In this document: positions 12,260-52,227 of the stretch, piece after piece | Layout: the number at the start of each line of letters is the position of its first letter | How positions within the stretch are numbered: the first letter of the stretch is position 1 | DNA from: Escherichia coli | GTDB lineage: Bacteria > Pseudomonadota > Gammaproteobacteria > Enterobacterales > Enterobacteriaceae | Strand: one strand, 5' to 3' | Length of the DNA: 64,000 bases | Assembly (NCBI RefSeq): GCF_044324875.1 | Contig: NZ_CP172185.1 | Notes under the pieces: model-generated | What the model saw: only the letters and a program-made list of their open reading frames with translations | The model's database searches: none | Told to the model about the DNA's origin: nothing | Translations under genes and position numbers: made by a program

Positions 12260-14521
12260 ATGTCGCAACATAACGAAAAGAACCCACATCAGCACCAGTC
12301 ACCACTACACGATTCCAGCGAAGCGAAACCGGGGATGGACTCACTGGCACCTGAGGACGGATCTCATCGTCCAGCGACTGAACCAACACCGCCAGGTGCA
12401 CAACCTACCGCCCCAGGGAGCCTGAAAGCCCCTGATACGCGTAACGAAAAACTTAATTCTCTGGAAGACGTACGCAAAGGCAGTGAAAATTATGCGCTGA
12501 CCACTAATCAGGGCGTACGCATCGCCGACGATCAAAACTCACTGCGTGCCGGTAACCGTGGTCCAACGCTGCTGGAAGATTTTATTCTGCGCGAGAAAAT
12601 CACTCACTTTGACCATGAGCGCATCCCGGAACGTATTGTTCATGCACGCGGATCAGCAGCTCACGGTTATTTCCAGCCATATAAAAGCTTAAGCGATATC
12701 ACCAAAGCGGATTTCCTCTCAGATCCGAACAAAATCACCCCAGTATTTGTTAGGTTCTCTACCGTTCAGGGTGGTGCTGGCTCTGCCGATACCGTGCGTG
12801 ATATCCGTGGCTTTGCCACCAAGTTCTATACCGAAGAGGGTATTTTTGACCTCGTTGGCAATAACACGCCAATCTTCTTTATCCAGGATGCGCATAAATT
12901 CCCCGATTTTGTTCATGCGGTAAAACCAGAACCGCACTGGGCAATTCCACAAGGGCAAAGCGCCCACGATACTTTCTGGGATTATGTTTCTCTGCAACCT
13001 GAAACTCTGCACAACGTGATGTGGGCGATGTCGGATCGCGGGATCCCACGCAGTTACCGCACCATGGAAGGCTTCGGTATTCACACCTTCCGCCTGATTA
13101 ATGCCGAAGGGAAGGCAACGTTCGTACGTTTCCACTGGAAACCACTGGCAGGTAAAGCCTCACTCGTTTGGGATGAAGCACAAAAACTAACCGGACGTGA
13201 CCCGGACTTCCACCGCCGCGAGTTGTGGGAAGCCATCGAAGCAGGCGATTTTCCGGAATACGAACTGGGCTTCCAGTTGATTCCTGAGGAAGATGAATTT
13301 AAGTTCGACTTCGACCTTCTTGATCCAACTAAACTTATCCCGGAAGAACTGGTGCCCGTTCAGCGTGTCGGCAAAATGGTGCTCAATCGCAATCCGGATA
13401 ACTTCTTTGCCGAAAACGAACAAGCAGCATTCCATCCAGGTCATATTGTTCCTGGTCTGGACTTCACCAACGATCCCCTGTTGCAGGGACGTTTGTTCTC
13501 CTATACCGATACACAAATCAGTCGTCTTGGTGGGCCGAATTTCCATGAGATTCCGATTAACCGCCCGACCTGCCCTTACCATAATTTCCAGCGTGACGGC
13601 ATGCATCGTATGGGGATCGACACTAACCCGGCGAATTATGAACCGAACTCGATCAACGATAACTGGCCGCGCGAAACACCGCCGGGGCCGAAACGCGGCG
13701 GTTTTGAATCATACCAGGAGCGCGTGGAAGGCAATAAAGTTCGCGAGCGCAGCCCATCGTTTGGCGAATATTATTCCCATCCGCGTCTGTTCTGGCTAAG
13801 TCAGACGCCATTCGAGCAGCGCCATATTGTCGATGGTTTCAGTTTTGAGTTAAGCAAAGTAGTTCGTCCGTATATTCGTGAGCGCGTTGTTGACCAGCTG
13901 GCGCATATTGATCTCACTCTGGCCCAGGCGGTGGCGAAAAATCTCGGTATCGAGCTGACGGACGACCAGCTGAATATCACCCCGCCTCCGGACGTCAACG
14001 GTCTGAAAAAGGATCCATCCTTAAGTTTGTACGCCATTCCTGACGGTGATGTGAAAGGTCGCGTGGTAGCGATTTTACTTAATGATGAAGTGAGATCGGC
14101 AGACCTTCTGGCCATTCTCAAGGCGCTGAAGGCCAAAGGCGTTCATGCCAAACTGCTCTACTCCCGAATGGGTGAAGTGACTGCGGATGACGGTACGGTG
14201 TTGCCTATAGCCGCTACCTTTGCCGGTGCACCTTCGCTGACGGTCGATGCGGTTATTGTCCCTTGCGGCAATATCGCGGATATCGCTGACAACGGCGATG
14301 CCAACTACTACCTGATGGAAGCCTACAAACACCTTAAACCGATTGCGCTGGCGGGAGACGCGCGCAAGTTTAAAGCAACAATCAAGGTCGCTGACCAGGG
14401 TGAAGAAGGGATTGTGGAAGCTGACAGCGCCGATGGTAGTTTTATGGATGAACTGTTAACGCTGATGGCAGCACACCGCATGTGGTCACGCATTCCTAAG
14501 ATTGACAAAATTCCGGCGTAA
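12260..14521 (+). CDS. katE: Catalase HPII (large-subunit monofunctional catalase)
   Basis: 753-aa ORF; N-terminus [38 protein letters not shown] and catalase core motifs (RERIPERVVHA-type, FDRERIPER) match KatE. Confidence 0.97.
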
Positions 14522-14529
14522 ATATGGAT

Positions 14530-14557
14530 AAGGTCACGCCCCCTGGGGAGTGACCTT
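14530..14557. terminator. Hairpin between convergent katE and chbG
   Basis: Near-perfect inverted repeat AAGGTCACGCCCC / GGGGAGTGACCTT right after the katE stop. Confidence 0.5.
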
Positions 14558-14567
14558 ACCACCTTAC

Positions 14568-16639
<2,072 letters not shown>

Positions 16640-33617: not shown

Positions 33618-35608
33618 ATGTTGCAACATTATTCAGCGTCATGGAAAAAAGGACTGACTGCACTCTGCTTACTGGCTGTTGCCGGGCTTAGCGGCTGCGA
33701 TCAAAAAGAGAATGCGGCGGCAAAAGTGGAATACGACGAACTTTCGAACAGCCAACCGCTGCGTGTCGATGCTAATAACCATACGGTAACCATGCTGGTG
33801 CAAATTAATGGTCGTTTCCTCACCGACGACACTCGTCACGGTATTGTGAACCGCCCCGGGTTTCCTGGAGAGTGTTTTATCTGTGAACTCAGGCTGCCAG
33901 ATCATCGTTTCCGATGGAAGCATAATAAGCTTTTTCTGCTTCTGCCGGTGGGATATGGCCCAGCCTTTCCAGCAATCGTCGATTGTTATACCAGTCCACC
34001 CACGTGAGTGTGGCCAGCTCCACTTCTGTCCGGTTTTTCCAGCTCTTACGGTGTATTACCTCCGCTTTGTAAAGGCCATTGATGCTCTCCGCCATCGCGT
34101 TGTCATACGAGTCACCAGTACTTCCTGTTGATGCCAGTAATCCGGCTTCCTTAAGCCGCTGTGTGTAGGCCAGCGATACATACTGAGAACCTTTATCACT
34201 GTGATGGACTGTGCCGGACGGTCGACGGGCCCATAACGCCTGCTCCAGAGCATCCAGCACGAATGTCGTTTCCATAGACGATGAGACCCGCCACCCCACG
34301 ATGTATCCGGCAAACACATCAATGATGAACGCCACATAGACGACCCCCTGCCATGTGCTGACGTAAGTAAAATCAGCCACCCACAACTGGTCAGGACGTT
34401 CTGCCACAAACTGACGGTTTACGCGGTCGCCTGCGGCAACGGCTTTCCGGCTGACGGTAGTGCGGACCTTTTTACCCCGGAGAACACCGGCAAGTCCCAT
34501 AACCGCCATGAGGCGCGCCACTGTACATCTGGCTACCCTGATTCCTTCCCGTAACAACTGACGCCAGACTTTACGCACACCGTATACCTGATGATTCCCA
34601 TCGTATACGCGCAGTATCTCTTTCTTCAGCCAGTCATCGCGCTGCGCACGGGCACTGCGTTTATCCGGATGATGTCGCTGTTGCTGACAGTGGTAATACG
34701 TTGACGGGGCAATATGTAGTTCACTGCATACCGGTCCGACCCCGTACAGCTTACGCAGCTTATCCAGCAGTGGCATCACTTTTTCCAGAGGCGGTCGAAC
34801 TCCGCCTTCGCAAAATAAGCGGAAGCCTGGCGAAGGATATCGTTACTGCGGCGCAGTTCACGATTTTCACGTTCCAGCTCTTTCAGACGCTGACGTTCAG
34901 CGGTGGTGAGCCCGCCATCACCGCCTCCGGTATCCCGCTCATGCTGGCGTACCCAGACACGCAGAGTCTCCGGTGTACAGCCAATCTTTGGGGCAATGGA
35001 ACAAATTGCCGCCCACTGTGAGTCATATTCGCCCTGACTTTCCAGAACCATACGAATCGCCCTCTGACGGACTTCGGGGGAAAAACGAGTATTTTTAGTC
35101 ATTCTGTTTACCTCTTTCTCAGGGAGTTTAGTCTCCAGGATTCCCGGGGCGGTTCATTGTGTTTAAAGATGGCTCCAACGGACATAAATCGCTGTTTATG
35201 GGTTATGCGACCCCGAAAGCATTTTATGAAGCCCTGAAAGAGGCAGGTGGTACACCGGGCGAAAACATGACGATGGATAATAAAGAAACGACTCATGTCA
35301 CAGGCAGCAAACTGGATATTTCGGTCAACTGGCAAGGGGCGGCAAAAGCGTATTCCTTCGATGAAGTGATTGTTGACAGTAATGGCAAGAAACTGGACAT
35401 GCGCTTTGGCGGTAATTTAACGGCAGCAGAAGAGAAGAAAACGGGCTGCCTGGTGTGTCTGGATAGCTGCCCGGTCGGCATCGTCAGCAATGCAACATAC
35501 ACTTATGGTGCGGTTGAAAAACGAGGTGAAGTTAAATTCAAAGGCAATGCCTCGGTTCTCCCGGCGGATAACACGCTGGCAACGGTTACCTTTAAAATCA
35601 CCGAATAA
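33618..35608 (+). pseudogene. ydjY: ydjY interrupted by IS629
   Basis: 5' part 33618..33846 (MLQHYSASWKKGLTALCLLAVAGLSGC…TRHGI) and 3' part 35157..35608 (VFKDGSNGHK…TFKITE) are in frame once the 1310-bp IS and one copy of the TTG duplication are removed. Confidence 0.8.
33847..35156 (-). mobile_element. IS629-like insertion sequence (IS3 family), copy 2, 1310 bp, inverted relative to copy 1
   Basis: Same termini; orfA 34776..35102 identical to copy 1; orfB 33889..34779 differs by a few residues (e.g. HPDKR vs HPYKR); 3-bp TSD TTG on both flanks. Confidence 0.85.
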
Positions 35609-46419: not shown

Positions 46420-46921
46420 CTACCCTTGTTTTTTATCCAAGCTGGAAAATGGTTCATCTAGCAACAGGATATCTGGATTTGGAACCAGTGACCTTGCAAG
46501 GGCAATACGTTGCTGCTGACCTCCTGAAAGTTCATGAGGATAGCTGTCTGAATAGTGGAATAAATCCACCATTTTCAACAGTTCTGTAACTCTGGTTCGC
46601 TGTACATCTCTCGGCAGTCTTCTCAGACCAAAGCCACGTTTTGTGAAACTGTAAGGTGGGGAAAGAGCGCATATTCCTGAAAGACTATACCGACATGACA
46701 TTTCTCCGGCGGAAAATGCATATCTGCGCTGGCCACACAATGCTGTGATACAAAAATTTCCCCTTGTTCAGGCGCTCAAAACCAGCTACAGCACGTAGTA
46801 CTGTTGTTTTTCCACAACCTGATGTACCAAGCAGACATGCCAGTTCACCTTTACAGACTGACATACCCCCCGCCCCGCAATACAGGATATGGGCTATTGG
46901 GATAAACAACATGGACATCAT
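46420..46921 (-). pseudogene. ABC transporter ATPase (Fe3+/thiamine-type), frameshifted
   Basis: Walker A GTSGCGKTT (46685..46921) and ABC signature [15 protein letters not shown] plus Walker [12 protein letters not shown] (46420..46740) in different frames. Confidence 0.6.
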
Positions 46922-46951
46922 TAATACATAAAGCTGTTTCTTCAGACATAA

Positions 46952-47552
46952 TCAATCCTCTGATTTCAGTCTTTCAGCTGGAACAAACAAAATAACCGGA
47001 AATGTCCCTGCAAGAACAATCATTAAAGCAGAGATGGCCCCTTCTTCAAAAGTTCCACGGGCTGCTTCAGCATAAAGAAGTGTTACTGGCAGTTCTTTCA
47101 TCGCATCAGTGAAAACCAGCAGGGCACTGCTCACCAGAGCAACACAGGAAAGTGAACCCGAACAAAAGTTCCTGTACCATTTTCTCCCAGCAGACGTGAG
47201 GCTTGTTCCAGTGACGCTGGTATACGTCCCAGCCGGACATCAAGTGCGCCGATGGCTATTGCCTGAAATCGCATCGTACAGCAAATCACCAACAGGACAC
47301 CGACAGACATTAAAGGTAACCCCCTGTAATCCAGTAGTTCCGCCAGCCAGCGGTCATTTAGGGAGTCAGAAAACCAATCGCCAGAATCGTGCCCGGAAAG
47401 GCATAACCCAGCGACGCCCCTCTCATCACACCGCGCCTGAACAGTGGCATAGCGTTGAGGAATTCCGGGCATTCCAGACTACGAGCAGACTGACAAAAAT
47501 TACGACAAAGCGTTGAAGGAAGCCAGCGCGCGGACTGACAGGACTTTACCAT
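46952..47552 (-). pseudogene. ABC transporter permease (binding-protein-dependent, AfuB/FbpB-like), fragmented
   Basis: Three consecutive short ORFs with permease features, including an EAA-loop-like RIPASLEQASRLLGENGTGTFVRVHFPVL. Confidence 0.5.
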
Positions 47553-47822
47553 AAAAACACAGGCTAACCGCGCCTGCGTTTTTAATGACGGATGAAACAG
47601 AATCAGGTGCCGATTATGCCGCCGTCGGCTTTTACGATAACGACAGTTGAGGAGCGCGGACGACCAGCCTTATCGCCGTCAGGCCAGCTTGATACTGCCG
47701 TCGGATGCTGCGGATCGCTAAGCTGCGTATTCCGCTCTATTCGATCACGGATTGGCATCGAAGTCCGATCAGCGATTCGCATCCATTCGATCAACCGGGA
47801 ACTTAACTTTTTCTACCGCTTT

Positions 47823-48578
47823 TTAACGCGTTTTTTCGCTGCTTTCCACTACCGGGGGATTTTTCCTCAGTGACTCTCCCTGAAGGACCACTCGGTGTGA
47901 GTTATGTACCAGTCTGTCCAGGATGGCATCTGCTGTTGTTGGGTTCTCCATCAGACCATGCCATTTATCTACCGGGAACTGGCTTACCACTATCGTGCTG
48001 CTTTGTCCGTAACGATCCTCTATGAGCTCCAGAAGGTCATTACACTGGGCGTTACTTAACTGTTCCAGCCCCAGATCGTCCAGGATTAGAACCTGTATTT
48101 TTTGCAACTGTTTCAGATATTTCAGCCAGCTGCCATCAACACGTCCCTGAGCCAGTTGTTCCAGTAATCGCCCGGTTCTACAGTACCGGACGCTGTGTTT
48201 CTGTCGACATGCCTGTTCGCCCAGCGCATTGGCTATCCAGCTCTTGCCACATCCTGTCGGACCGGTTATCAGCAGGTTTTTCCTGTGGGTTATGTAGTGG
48301 CCGTTCAGCAGTTCTCTCATCTGTTCAGCCCGCAGACCTCTTGAGGCCGGATAGCGCAGCCCTTCCGGTGTTGCCTGGTATTTCAGGCCGGCATTTTTTC
48401 TCAACCGTGCCACACGGCTGTTTTCCCTGCTCAGAAGCTCGTCATCAACCAGCAGCGTCAGCCTTTCCTCGAACGACAGTTCGTCGTAGGTCTGAGGCGT
48501 TTCCCGCTGCCGTATCAGGCTCCCGGCCATCGCCGGGAGTTTCAGTTGGGTCAGTTTGTTTAACAGGTTATCACTCAT
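47823..48578 (-). CDS. istB: IS21-family helper ATPase IstB
   Basis: MSDNLLNKLTQLKLPAMAGSL… with Walker A GPTGCGKS and Walker B VLILDDLG. Confidence 0.8.
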   Translation of the reverse strand: MSDNLLNKLTQLKLPAMAGSLIRQRETPQTYDELSFEERLTLLVDDELLSRENSRVARLRKNAGLKYQATPEGLRYPASRGLRAEQMRELLNGHYITHRKNLLITGPTGCGKSWIANALGEQACRQKHSVRYCRTGRLLEQLAQGRVDGSWLKYLKQLQKIQVLILDDLGLEQLSNAQCNDLLELIEDRYGQSSTIVVSQFPVDKWHGLMENPTTADAILDRLVHNSHRVVLQGESLRKNPPVVESSEKTR

Positions 48579-48594
48579 ACTGTTGTTCCTTCTG

Positions 48595-50160
48595 TCAGTG
48601 GTAGTAGCCCGGACCACGCAGGTTTTCATGCTCTGAAGCATATGCCGGATGTTGTTCGCCCTGGCGGGATAATGGAAGCTCCAGGTTCTCCCGATGGTGA
48701 CGCAGCAGATTGTCGATAAAGCGTCTGTCAGGGGCGTTATAGTGCAGGGCAACGTAACAGGCCTTTTCCAGCCGTTCCGGGCCGTATTTTTTCTGAAGTG
48801 CCAGCAGCCCCAGAACTGCACGATAAGCCAGTTCCGGATGGGGTTTTGCCTTCAGCATGGATTCAACCACCCGGCCTGTGGACGGGCCCGTACGTTTTCC
48901 CTGCTCGATCAGGCGTTCCGGTGTCCATGTCCCGTGCTGCCGGTGGCGCTCTGGCATGTGAAGCGGATTGGTTGTGTGTTTATATTCATGTGTGCTGCGC
49001 GGATGTTGCGCCACACACTGCCCCTTGTGCCAGAGCTGTACCACCGACTGCCCCGCCTTCAGTGACAGACGCTGACCGACCAGTTCGTGTGGAACGGAGT
49101 ACCAGTGACGGGCATATTCAACGTGGTAGTCAGGGCCAACCTTCACAGCTTTGTATTCCGTGTATTCATAAGGTGCCAGAGGCAGCGGAGAGAGTGCTGG
49201 CGCATCCAGTATGCGGAAGCGTTCTGCACGGGTTTGATTGCCGTACCCCTTCATTGGCCGGTTATTCATGTCTGTCAGTAACTCCCTAAGGCGCGCATTC
49301 AGCGCCCTGAGCGTGTGGAAGGTTTCATTACGGATGCGGGCAAGAAGCCATCGTTCAACGATGAGGACGCCGTTTTCTGCTTTTGGTTTATCTTTAGGTT
49401 TGCGTGGTCGGGCCGGGATGATAACCGTGCCATAGTGCTCAGCCAGTGCCTGATAACTGTCGTTGATGACAGGCTCATATCGATCGGCCTTTTTCACTGC
49501 GCTTCTGAGGTTATCGGGGATGAGCAGCTTCGGTACGCCGCCCAGGAAGGTCAGGCAACGGCTGTGGGCATTTAACCATGACATCATGTCCTGACCTTCG
49601 CACGCTTCAACGTAGGTATAGTTGGACGCCCCCATTACGGCCACGAAGATTGCCACGCGGCGTATCTCACCGGTGTCCGGATTAATAACAGGAACCGTAG
49701 GACCACAGAAGTCGATAAAAAGCTTTTCGCCGGCACGATGCTCCTGGCGCATGGAGAGACGTCGCGTTTTTTTCCACTCCCGGTAGCAACGGCAGAAGTG
49801 CGAGTATCCCATCGCTTTGTTACCCGCCTGTGCCTTGTATTCCATCCACAACAGTTGCCGCGTCACACCTGGTTTTCTCATTTCCGTATCGAAGTACAAC
49901 ATGTCAGGCATTACAAGCTCTGATGCAAAGGTGTCTTTGGGCGGAAAAATGAGTTTCTCCAGCGTGTCATGGGATATATCAGCAGGTAATGGCCATGACA
50001 GAGAAGAGGCTTTGAAGCGGGCAAGAACCTCAAAAACGGTTGAGGCGCTGATGTGTAACGTCAGTCCGATACAACGGTTAGTCAGCTTCTTGTCGAACTT
50101 GAGCTGAAGGATCTTAAAACAGGTTTCCATAGTGCTCCTGGATTTTCTCTTTCTGGACAT
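48595..50160 (-). CDS. istA: IS21-family transposase IstA
   Basis: About 510-520 aa with HTH N-terminus and DDE integrase core; start codon uncertain (ORF extends to 50241). Confidence 0.75.
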   Translation of the reverse strand: MSRKRKSRSTMETCFKILQLKFDKKLTNRCIGLTLHISASTVFEVLARFKASSLSWPLPADISHDTLEKLIFPPKDTFASELVMPDMLYFDTEMRKPGVTRQLLWMEYKAQAGNKAMGYSHFCRCYREWKKTRRLSMRQEHRAGEKLFIDFCGPTVPVINPDTGEIRRVAIFVAVMGASNYTYVEACEGQDMMSWLNAHSRCLTFLGGVPKLLIPDNLRSAVKKADRYEPVINDSYQALAEHYGTVIIPARPRKPKDKPKAENGVLIVERWLLARIRNETFHTLRALNARLRELLTDMNNRPMKGYGNQTRAERFRILDAPALSPLPLAPYEYTEYKAVKVGPDYHVEYARHWYSVPHELVGQRLSLKAGQSVVQLWHKGQCVAQHPRSTHEYKHTTNPLHMPERHRQHGTWTPERLIEQGKRTGPSTGRVVESMLKAKPHPELAYRAVLGLLALQKKYGPERLEKACYVALHYNAPDRRFIDNLLRHHRENLELPLSRQGEQHPAYASEHENLRGPGYYH

Positions 50161-50241
50161 TGACGTCTCCACTGGTTTAAACACGGCAATGGAGACTGTG
50201 GTGAAAAGAGTTAATTCCCGGAGTGACTGGCAGGATGCCAA

Positions 50242-52227
50242 TCAATGATCGGAAGCATGCCAAATCGTGATCGATTGTGATGCCAAACTGTGATCGGAGA
50301 TGGATGCCAAATCATGATCGATTCGAATGCCAAACTGCGATCGATTCAGATGCCATTTTGCACTAAGCCCTTCGCTTGGCTCGCCAGGGTGCTGGATGTT
50401 AATAAACAGCGTCCGGTTATCCGGAGTGAACGCGATGCCGGTGATTTCGCAGCCGCGCGGGCCGGTCAGGAAGCGGCGGAACTCATTGGTACCGGGAATC
50501 GTCGCCACCATCTGGTTGTTGCCCATGCCTTTGTAATCTTTAATATTTATGGTTGATGACGACACGTCGGTCTGGATCCATAGCACGCCGCGGTGATCGA
50601 AGCTCAGGCCATCGGCGCTGCCGAATTCCGCACCCTTCATGCTGCCTTTGGTTTCCGGTTTGTCTGTATCGGTGCGACCGCCCATCACAAGAATATCCCA
50701 GGCAAACTGCAGCGCGGTCGGGTCACCGTTATGCTCCAGCCAGTGAATGATGTGGCCGTAAACGTTTTTGGCGCGCGGGTTGGCCGCATCCACTGGCGCT
50801 TTTCCTTCCTTACCGCGATCGCTGTTGTTGGTGAGCGTGCAGTAAACGCTGCCGGCGTGATATGGATCGACCGCAATCCACTCCGGGCGGTCCATTTTAG
50901 TGGCCCCCACGGCGTCTGCCGCCAGACGGGTTTTAATCAACAGGTCGCCCTGGTTTTCAAACCCTTTACTGGCGTCGAGCCCATTTTGTCCGAACACCAG
51001 CGGTAGCCACTCGCCTTTGCCGTCGTCGTTAAATTTCGCCACGTACAGAGTGCCTTTTTCCAGCAGGTGCATGTTGGCTTTGCGATCCTGCGGGTTGAAT
51101 TTTCCTTCCGAGACAAATTTATATATGTATTCGAATTTCTGGTCATCGCCCATATAGACCACAACGCGGTTATCCGGGGCAATTGTCACCGCTGCGCCTT
51201 CGTGTTTGATGCGACCAAGCGCGGTGTGCTTGCGCGGCACTGAATGCGGATCGTATGGATCGATTTCCACCACCCAGCCGAAGCGGTTCGGCTCGTTCGG
51301 CGTGGCGTCGACGCTGAACCTTTTATCCACTTCGTTCCAGCGGTAAGAGTCGTCGCTCCCGCTGATACCGTAACGTTTTTCCAGCGGGTTCATCTCTGCT
51401 TTTTTTACGAAAATATCGGACCAGTTCTCTTCACACGTCAGATAGGTGCCCCACGGCGTAAATCCGTTGGCACAGTTCTGCATGGTGCCGAGAATGATTT
51501 CGCCTTTCGGATCGTCAACTGTTTGCATCAGTGGGTTATGCAGCGCCGGACCGGTGATTTTCATCGGCGTGTTAACGGTGATGCGGCGTGCGAACGATGA
51601 CGGGCGCACCACTTCCCAGCCCAGGGGCACTTTTTTTACTTCAATGACCGACACGCCCATCGCGTTCTGGCCTTTAAGAGCTTTATCGGCGCTCCAGTTG
51701 GCATCGCCATCTTTAAACAGTAGACCGTTATCGATGTATTCATGGTTTATGGCAAGCAGGCCGTGATCGGAGCTGTTCCCGCCCTGCGGCAGGCTAAACC
51801 ACGCCATGCCGTCGTGGTGCATCCCGGCCTGCGCCGCCTGTTCTTCCGTGGTGTTGCTACCGTCGGTTTTAAAAACCGGCAGATTTCCGGCAATCCCGGT
51901 GGCGTCGCCCCATTTGTAGAAGGGCTTCGCGATGTATCCTTCCGGCACGATAACGGTATCTTCCGTGGAAACCGGCAGGCTGGTGAAACCGAGCGTCGTC
52001 GCTTTGCCGAGGTTACCGCTTGCTTTGGAGACCACTTTCGCCAGCGCGTTTTCCTGTTTCAGCAGAAATGGGAACGCTGCCGCGGCACCGGCGACCGTGC
52101 CTGCCTGTAACAGACGGCGGCGTGACAAATAGACTTCCGCCACCTGCGAAAACGCGCGGTTATCGCTCGGGTTACTGATTTCTTCACTATGCTCACGTTT
52201 GAATAAAGTTTTTAACGGTCTGCCCAT
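50242..52227 (-). CDS. Tat-signal secreted PhoX-family (DUF839) phosphatase-like protein; C-terminus replaced by IS21-derived codons
   Basis: 661-aa ORF; twin-arginine motif SRRRLLQAGTVAGAAAA; beta-propeller-like repeats; last about 40 codons read through the IS21 terminal repeats. Confidence 0.45.
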   Translation of the reverse strand: MGRPLKTLFKREHSEEISNPSDNRAFSQVAEVYLSRRRLLQAGTVAGAAAAFPFLLKQENALAKVVSKASGNLGKATTLGFTSLPVSTEDTVIVPEGYIAKPFYKWGDATGIAGNLPVFKTDGSNTTEEQAAQAGMHHDGMAWFSLPQGGNSSDHGLLAINHEYIDNGLLFKDGDANWSADKALKGQNAMGVSVIEVKKVPLGWEVVRPSSFARRITVNTPMKITGPALHNPLMQTVDDPKGEIILGTMQNCANGFTPWGTYLTCEENWSDIFVKKAEMNPLEKRYGISGSDDSYRWNEVDKRFSVDATPNEPNRFGWVVEIDPYDPHSVPRKHTALGRIKHEGAAVTIAPDNRVVVYMGDDQKFEYIYKFVSEGKFNPQDRKANMHLLEKGTLYVAKFNDDGKGEWLPLVFGQNGLDASKGFENQGDLLIKTRLAADAVGATKMDRPEWIAVDPYHAGSVYCTLTNNSDRGKEGKAPVDAANPRAKNVYGHIIHWLEHNGDPTALQFAWDILVMGGRTDTDKPETKGSMKGAEFGSADGLSFDHRGVLWIQTDVSSSTINIKDYKGMGNNQMVATIPGTNEFRRFLTGPRGCEITGIAFTPDNRTLFINIQHPGEPSEGLSAKWHLNRSQFGIRIDHDLASISDHSLASQSITIWHASDH

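Follow-up and report, generated by a model that had tools for sequence, protein, structure and literature searches.

An IS21-family element of the ISSso4 group in the 3' end of a phoX gene within an Escherichia coli genomic island

An IS21-family element (ISSso4 group) has transposed into codon 622 of a phoX gene, duplicating 6 bp of target DNA, in the 64,000-nucleotide stretch of E. coli DNA analysed here (the window; contig NZ_CP172185.1). The account as a whole, i.e. a recent and strain-specific transposition into phoX from which we infer inactivation of PhoX, is highly probable.

Results

The inserted element was complete, 2639 bp in length and located at 47724..50362 on the minus strand, with limits set by 100% identity over exactly positions 1-2639 to plasmid copies. 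Perfect copies of the hexamer CTAAGC flanked the IS on both sides. Copy 1 (47718..47723) was read directly from the sequence, and copy 2 (50363..50368) was placed by reconstruction, empty-site comparison and blastn. The hexamer was single-copy at the empty site (locus L001), and blastn segments against locus L003 overlapped by exactly the 6 bp of this duplication. The insertion point fell within codon 622 of phoX, a gene of 659 codons whose product has a Tat signal (i.e. in the last 6% of the gene), and serine 622 was kept across the junction, its codon changing from AGC to AGT. In silico removal of the IS and one copy of the duplication restored an in-frame 659-aa phoX ORF. The first-pass annotation had proposed an IS21-family element inserted in the 3' end of phoX, which is borne out by the duplication, the empty site and the restored ORF; its limits of 47700-50365 were too wide, the exact ones lying slightly inside them. 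It had overlooked the 6-bp duplication, the displaced phoX 3' end (47603-47717) and the empty site with an intact 659-aa phoX in other E. coli chromosomes, as well as the prior cataloguing of both the IS and the gene.

Uninterrupted versions of the gene were present in other genomes. The island also occurs in E. coli F1022, SCU-115 and DG341-1, where it contains a 1980-bp 'PhoX family protein' gene (WP_000533456.1; 99.8% DNA identity), the site being empty there and occupied by the IS here. The IS-removed window was 99.82% identical to F1022 over 19 kb, and the restored 659-aa protein differed from WP_000533456.1 of F1022 at a single position (524; P here, L there). This protein covered 100% of 659-aa homologs and was 96% identical to a Cronobacter-named cluster. 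It also matched Pseudomonas fluorescens PhoX (PDB 3ZWU/4A9V; PF05787) end-to-end, with residues 70-658 aligning to 3ZWU as far as its last residues (E 1e-167), and likewise has a Tat signal. The same phoX was found at >=99% identity in 98 genomes. Its setting is an integrase-bounded, iha-bearing genomic island adjoining ynjA on the E. coli chromosome. The island genes neighbouring phoX are already decayed, and phoX is among the few still intact in other strains. A search of the literature on PhoX together with the iha island found nothing relevant.

Two other origins of the junction were weighed against transposition. A repeat-induced misjoin of the assembly would fit the multi-copy nature of the IS in Escherichia (up to 23 places per genome) and the occurrence of the junction in no other genome of the collection (5426 complete E. 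coli). Such an artefact is very improbable, since both junctions are present with exactly one full-length IS between them and the perfect 6-bp duplication is single-copy at the empty site, a signature of transposition and not of a misjoin. Descent in the opposite direction, with the 661-aa form as the ancestor and the 659-aa genes elsewhere derived by IS loss, has formal possibility alone in its favour and a likelihood that is close to nil. The 659-aa C-terminus is conserved across PhoX of Cronobacter, Franconibacter, Enterobacter, Klebsiella, Neisseriaceae and Pseudomonas, and the alien tail comes from the terminal repeats of the IS, which have the same sequence in unrelated plasmid settings; the homolog C-termini, the 3ZWU alignment and the F1022 comparison refute a 661-aa ancestor.

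The transposed element contains two co-oriented genes, istA then istB, 16 bp apart. The first (48595..50130, minus strand, ATG at 50130) encodes an IS21-family DDE transposase of 511 aa and the second (47823..48578, minus strand) an AAA+ helper ATPase of 251 aa, with coordinates taken from the identical RefSeq copies WP_045147483.1 and WP_001282653.1, respectively. IstA scored 284.4 bits against NF033546 (cutoff 160) and IstB 256.6 bits against NF038214 (cutoff 200); with both above their NCBIfam cutoffs, the earlier assignment of the element to the IS21 family holds.

In the istA orientation, the IS ends read 5'-TGCAAAATGGCA...GCGGAATACGCA-3', with TG...CA termini. Inverted repeats at these ends (I1/I2) spanned 48-54 nt with 70-75% complementarity. 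The left (istA-proximal) terminal inverted repeat (50235..50362, minus strand) was delimited by TRF, inverted-repeat and motif searches, with TRF reporting tandem repeats at 50233-50355 of periods 23 and 47. Five direct copies of the motif CGATC-N(5-6)-TTGGCAT occupied 50235-50343, with start spacings of 23, 24, 23 and 22 bp, followed by a partial terminal copy to 50362. In the right (istB-distal) terminal inverted repeat (47724..47790, minus strand; inverted-repeat and motif searches), two copies were present at 47742-47758 and 47766-47782, spaced by 24 bp. The motif was confined to ~130 bp of both IS ends and occurred there in inverted orientation, so the repeats are no chance feature. Multiple direct repeats ~23 bp apart are known for IS21 terminal inverted repeats (PMC10122671). 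The view that the repeats form an IS21-family terminus was thus upheld by the TG...CA ends, the ~23-bp repeats and identity to annotated ISSso4-family elements; a description as tandem 22-24-bp repeats was correct, with the limits of 50231-50365 replaced by those given above. Having istA, istB and multi-repeat TG...CA ends, this copy is functional-looking, as judged from its sequence.

The IS was 100% identical (2639/2639 bp) to many E. coli and E. fergusonii plasmid copies in different contexts, and these identical plasmid copies carry the PGAP label 'IS21-like element ISSso4 family'. The ISSso4 assignment is made via these labelled copies and not via an ISfinder reference, and so covers ISSso4 itself or a named isoform. 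ISSso4-group elements of Escherichia and Shigella have the same istA (WP_045147483.1), istB (WP_001282653.1), ends and 5-7-bp duplications, and differ only in insertion site. Independent copies share their end bases and show 5-7-bp target duplications, which were seen in six copies besides the present one. The IS end was held by 1754 of 5426 complete E. coli genomes. A target-sequence preference was considered because one plasmid copy (L005) has a duplication, GCTAAGC, that resembles CTAAGC, and because several junction-probe matches ran 7-12 nt past the IS end; six flanks of the latter kind lacked similarity to the phoX target, and a preference found no support. Compared to the IS21/IS5376 prototype (PMC10122671, PMC11208146), the element has the same istA-istB layout, terminal CA and repeat architecture, the direct repeats ~23 bp apart in the prototype being IstA HTH binding sites. 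For the prototype, repeats L1/L2 and R1/R2 are described, whereas the present left end has five full repeats and a partial one and the right end two; IS5376 is reported to duplicate 5 bp of its target in vitro, as against 6 bp in the present case (PMC10122671).

The interrupted gene is read as a chimeric ORF of 661 codons (50242..52227, minus strand; TGA stop at 50242-50244), consisting of PhoX residues 1-622 and 39 IS-encoded residues. Its phoX portion, codons 1-621 and two bases of codon 622, lies at 50363..52227 (minus strand), as determined by reconstruction, Pfam and BLASTP. Residues 80-615 matched the Pfam PhoX domain (PF05787, formerly DUF839) over model positions 2-515 of 515 (E 1e-165); Pfam was used because NCBIfam has no PhoX model. 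A twin-arginine signal region (residues 35-51, SRRRLLQAGTVAGAAAA; 52075..52125, minus strand) coincided with a weak Pfam TAT_signal match (residues 34-53, E 0.016) and comprises an SRRRLLQ motif followed by a hydrophobic A/G-rich stretch. R36 and R37 were invariant in 19 homologs, and homologs are named 'Tat pathway signal protein' in source records. The first-pass description of a 661-aa ORF with a twin-arginine motif and PhoX/DUF839 character therefore stands, on a full-length PF05787 match and a weak TAT_signal match. The alien tail (AKWHLNRSQ...WHASDH) is read from the left-end repeats of the IS, as had been suggested, although it counts 39 codons instead of about 40. BLASTP of the 661-aa ORF against the 659-aa Cronobacter-cluster PhoX (P0001) ended at residue 626 with identity lost after S622, so that the alignment of the chimera to intact homologs falls short of its full length, in agreement with the earlier prediction. 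As compared to P. fluorescens PhoX, the present allele is without the last 37 residues and has the 39 IS-encoded residues instead; the conserved C-terminus W-P...R-P-R-S-S-T-V-V-I...D-G-G-I-I-G is missing from the 661-aa allele after S622.

The native phoX 3' end was located across the IS from the phoX body. By translation and reconstruction, 47603..47717 (minus strand; 115 bp) holds the 37 codons 623-659 (DPQHPTAVSSWPDGDKAGRPRSSTVVIVKADGGIIGT), preceded by the last base of codon 622 and followed by the stop codon (47603-47605). Directly 3' of this stop was a hairpin with A- and U-tracts (inverted repeat I20; 47552..47584, minus strand; RNA fold -19.2 kcal/mol, z = -2.2), and a terminator-like match was obtained at 47560-47576 on the + strand. 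From its sequence, the hairpin is likely the native phoX terminator, a putative bidirectional intrinsic terminator, with the IS now lying between it and the phoX body.

The lost segment was compared among homologs and modelled. In 19 homologs with identities down to 65%, 16 of its 37 positions did not vary (P624, A629, S631, W633, P634, R641, P642, R643, T646, V647, V648, I649, G654, G655, I657 and G658), and 3ZWU has the PRSS...I...DGGI.G motif as well. An AlphaFold model built with alignment A1 had a pTM of 0.81 and a TM of 0.90 to 3ZWU (Foldseek). The model placed a beta-strand, the last one predicted for PhoX, at residues 645-651 of the lost segment (pLDDT ~84-89), while residues 616-621, just before the junction, were modelled with low confidence and are probably flexible. 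As the segment is highly conserved and holds this last predicted strand, loss of function is likely.

Retention of activity by the chimera was weighed against this reading. PhoX proteins are alkaline phosphatases, i.e. Fe/Ca-dependent phosphomonoesterases, with a fold that we take, from Foldseek neighbours, to be a six-bladed beta-propeller. A protein of 622 native and 39 alien residues might still fold, be exported and provide useful phosphatase activity, making the event a tail swap and not a knockout: the Pfam PhoX domain ends at residue 615 and is formally complete, the Tat signal is kept, the residues at the junction are those with low confidence and probable flexibility, and C252, which aligns to Cys179 of the 3ZWU chain, is in the retained part. 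This cysteine is presumably the Fe-ligating one, with the other metal ligands also presumed to be retained. Against such a tail swap are the invariance of 16 of the 37 lost residues and the loss of a confidently-predicted terminal strand that is conserved down to the 46%-identical P. fluorescens PhoX. Moreover, beta-propellers usually depend on all strands in all of their blades, and misfolded proteins are rejected by Tat quality control, both of which disfavour an active chimera. An active chimera is accordingly considered unlikely. Inactivation is preferred: the insertion has swapped the last 37 PhoX residues for 39 from the left terminal repeats of the IS, leaving the native 3' end and its terminator stranded some 2.6 kb downstream, and the chimeric protein would be expected to misfold, and to fail Tat export or be degraded. 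Conservation and the structural model thus suggest that chimeric PhoX probably has little or no phosphatase activity and that phoX is probably a fresh pseudogene.

The distribution of the insertion was examined using junction sequences. A 300-bp junction probe had no match at >=80% coverage in any of the 5426 complete E. coli genomes; the extensions of several matches by 7-12 nt beyond the IS end were judged to be BLAST noise. No match to the 40-nt junction GATTCAGATGCCATTTTGCACTAAGCCCTTCGCTTGGCTC was obtained among GTDB species-representative genomes, and an exact-product look-up returned no gene product on record identical to the chimeric ORF. From sequence identity and from its absence in the 5426 genomes, the insertion is recent and strain-specific, and the IS/phoX junction is a possible strain or lineage marker.

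Discussion

phoX and istA are co-oriented, with the chimeric ORF and istA in one frame and separated by a single TGA, and no terminator-like site was found in the interval from the stop of the chimera (50242) to the istA ATG (50130). With this arrangement, transcription from the phoX promoter could reach istAB. The phoX promoter is presumably induced by phosphate starvation; a search with the Pho box consensus CTGTCATAWAWCTGTCAY (<=3 mismatches) gave 0 matches in the window. That phoX-promoter transcription enters istAB and renders transposition nutrient-responsive, with rare UGA read-through yielding a PhoX'-IstA fusion, is a speculative and distinctly unlikely proposal; if the read-through were true, transposition of the present IS copy would respond to nutrients.

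The IS and the phoX gene are each already catalogued, and the event is an ordinary gene disruption by a well-known mobile element that matters little beyond annotation. For annotation, the locus should be recorded as a pseudogene, phoX disrupted by an IS21 element of the ISSso4 group, linked to the fragment at 47603-47717, and not as a 661-aa protein. For the organism, the insertion is one more case of ongoing IS-driven decay in the iha-bearing island.

Disruption of phoX by an IS21-family element

Three long ORFs were listed, all on the minus strand (i.e. 50242-52227, 661 aa; 48595-50241; and 47823-48821). The first-pass annotation had described the 661-aa product as PhoX-like with a Tat motif, and this was borne out by a full-length match to Pfam PhoX (PF05787, formerly DUF839) spanning residues 80-615 (E 1e-165) and a weak Pfam TAT_signal match covering SRRRLLQAGTVAGAAAA. 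The adjacent element was confirmed as belonging to the IS21 family: the transposase, IstA, scored 284 bits against NF033546 (cutoff 160) and the helper ATPase, IstB, 257 bits against NF038214 (cutoff 200). Limits for istA (48595-50130; 511 aa) and istB (47823-48578; 251 aa), both on the minus strand, were taken over from an identical copy annotated in RefSeq. Direct reading placed the IS at 47724-50362 (minus strand; 2639 bp), with termini, in istA orientation, of 5'-TGCAAAATGGCA...GCGGAATACGCA-3' and a target duplication, CTAAGC, on either side (i.e. 47718-47723 and 50363-50368).

The phoX frame crosses into the IS in codon 622, retaining S622 (AGC to AGT), and continues for 39 codons through the left terminal repeats (AKWHLNRSQFGIRIDHDLASISDHSLASQSITIWHASDH) to a stop at 50242-50244. 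In a BLASTP alignment with an intact 659-aa homolog, identity was lost exactly at the junction, in agreement with the earlier claim that the last ~40 codons are translated from IS repeats. The displaced 3' end of phoX lies beyond the IS (47603-47717) in the matching frame, encoding DPQHPTAVSSWPDGDKAGRPRSSTVVIVKADGGIIGT followed by a stop. Deletion of the IS and one duplication copy generated a 1980-nt ORF of 659 codons. The restored protein showed 100% coverage of 659-aa PhoX proteins, with 96% identity to a Cronobacter-named cluster, differed at one residue (position 524; P here, L there) from WP_000533456.1 (intact "PhoX family protein", E. coli F1022), and aligned as far as the last residues of P. 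fluorescens PhoX (3ZWU; E 1e-167). An empty site (...GGATCGCTAAGCCCTTCG...) was found in the same island of strains F1022, SCU-115 and DG341-1. With the IS excised, the window was 99.82% identical to F1022 over 19 kb, and the two flanks overlapped by exactly the 6 duplicated bases in blastn against DG341-1. The target duplication, displaced fragment and empty site uphold an IS21 insertion in the phoX 3' end, and these comparisons indicate that phoX was interrupted by the IS and not created by it. Both the observation and the interpretation of the first-pass annotation were correct; the refinements are the exact boundaries, target duplication, displaced 3' fragment, empty site and identity of the IS.

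Terminal repeats and age of the insertion

Five copies of the motif CGATC-N(5-6)-TTGGCAT, 22-24 bp apart, were located at the istA-proximal IS end (50235-50343) and two inverted copies at the other end (47742-47782), with none elsewhere in a scan of the whole element; TRF independently called the array at 50233-50355. The layout is that reported for the terminal inverted repeats of IS21, in which direct repeats (i.e. L1/L2 and R1/R2), ~23 bp apart, are bound by the IstA HTH domains and the terminus is CA (PMC10122671). Plasmid copies with 100% identity from first base to last (2639 bp) occur in many unrelated contexts in E. coli and E. fergusonii, their IstB being labelled "IS21-like element ISSso4 family helper ATPase"; six had the same terminal bases, each with its own 5-7-bp duplication. 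The confinement of the motif to the IS ends, its IS21-type layout and the identical ISSso4-family copies establish the tandem repeats as an IS21-family terminus, as proposed. An independent copy on an IncHI2 plasmid (NZ_MG662415.1) is flanked by GCTAAGC, nearly equal to the CTAAGC here, before which the empty site has a G. This likeness is probably coincidental, as six further IS flanks lacked any similarity to the phoX target sequence.

Among 5426 complete E. coli genomes, 98 contained this phoX at ≥99% identity and 1754 the IS end; a 300-bp probe with the IS/phoX junction at its midpoint was matched over ≥80% of its length in none. The chimeric product had no record in a large gene-position collection, and the 40-nt junction was absent from GTDB species-representative genomes. 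The perfect duplication, an IS sequence indistinguishable from other copies (100% identity) and the absence of the junction from the collections searched indicate a recent, strain-specific transposition.

Predicted consequences for PhoX

The chimera retains the Pfam-defined domain, to residue 615, and C252, which aligns to residue 179 in the 3ZWU chain and is presumably an Fe ligand, and might on these grounds keep its function despite the tail swap. Against this, no variation was seen across 19 homologs (down to 65% identity) at 16 of the 37 residues that the insertion removes (i.e. P624, A629, S631, W633, P634, R641, P642, R643, T646, V647, V648, I649, G654, G655, I657 and G658), and the PRSS...I...DGGI.G motif is also present in P. 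fluorescens PhoX (46% structural-alignment identity). An AlphaFold model from the 19-homolog alignment (pTM 0.81; TM 0.90 to 3ZWU), whose other Foldseek neighbours were six-bladed propellers (e.g. neuraminidases, PON1), placed a confident beta-strand at 645-651, within the missing tail. With this conserved terminal propeller strand gone and 39 unrelated residues added, folding is expected to be compromised. Misfolded Tat substrates are not exported by virtue of Tat quality control. On balance, loss of PhoX function is likely.

Transcription around the junction

phoX and istA share both orientation and reading frame, separated only by the TGA at 50242-50244, and a mechanical ORF list begins 'istA' at a TTG right behind this stop; the shared frame is probably coincidental (a 1 in 3 chance). 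A minus-strand scan from 50362 to 50130 detected no terminator-like sites. Given this arrangement, transcription starting at the phoX promoter could extend into istAB. A hairpin at 47552-47584 (-19.2 kcal/mol; 13-bp stem), terminator-like on both strands with A- and T-tracts on its sides, lies 19 nt past the native phoX stop and is the probable native terminator, now separated from the phoX body by the IS. No match to the Pho-box consensus was found in a scan of the window. Immediately downstream, all strains examined carry the iron ABC-transporter genes (about 46420-47552) only as frameshifted pseudogenes, so polar effects of the IS would find no functional target.

Genomic setting

The window is chromosomal. 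Its backbone comprises pfkB, katE, the chb and ast operons, xthA and ydjX-ynjA; beyond this comes an island with a tyrosine integrase at its start, which also holds iha, phoX, IS remnants and decayed ICE genes. When the island (36000-64000) was compared with F1022, SCU-115 and DG341-1, frameshifts or truncations affected most neighbouring genes in every strain (i.e. the iron ABC transporter, ICE genes, a glycosyltransferase and a polysaccharide deacetylase). In the other strains, both phoX and iha have remained intact. At the protein level, the island PhoX is 96% identical to a Cronobacter-named PhoX but only 76-78% identical to those of Klebsiella and Enterobacter, which suggests horizontal transfer from a donor resembling Cronobacter. 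A phoX-internal 112-bp piece (about 51254-51365) matched, at ~92%, unannotated DNA on some 185 plasmids of Escherichia, Shigella and Salmonella (hits H80-H90). It has the appearance of a phoX remnant that has spread widely, and the majority of the 375 E. coli records matching phoX at 90-95% identity can probably be attributed to it.

Extra, different IS (i.e. IS21-like ISEc12-family and IS256-like IS1414) occupy the same island in E. coli NRZ14408, TUM1886 and Ch1 (hits H121-H124), and the island is a recurrent IS target. Two inverted 1310-bp IS3-family copies, 99.7% identical, are present at 15255-16564 (plus strand) and 33847-35156 (minus strand), with orfB at 15632-16522 scoring 309 bits against NF033516. 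Relative to DG341-1 these are insertions in chbG and ydjY, with flank alignments overlapping by about 5-6 bp, and the strain therefore carries at least three recent IS insertions within 64 kb. Lying in opposite orientations, the two IS3-family copies could allow the chb-ast-xthA segment to invert. Beside one insertion, the katE 3' end and chbG stretch (14367-15254) showed only 94.6% identity to DG341-1, with 6 gaps, as compared to 98.65% for adjacent backbone and 99.6-99.8% for the island, marking a locally divergent or recombined segment.

The phoX event is a routine IS-mediated disruption, both the IS and the enzyme family having been catalogued already. The finding is useful for annotating phoX correctly as a pseudogene, and the junction may be usable as a lineage marker.
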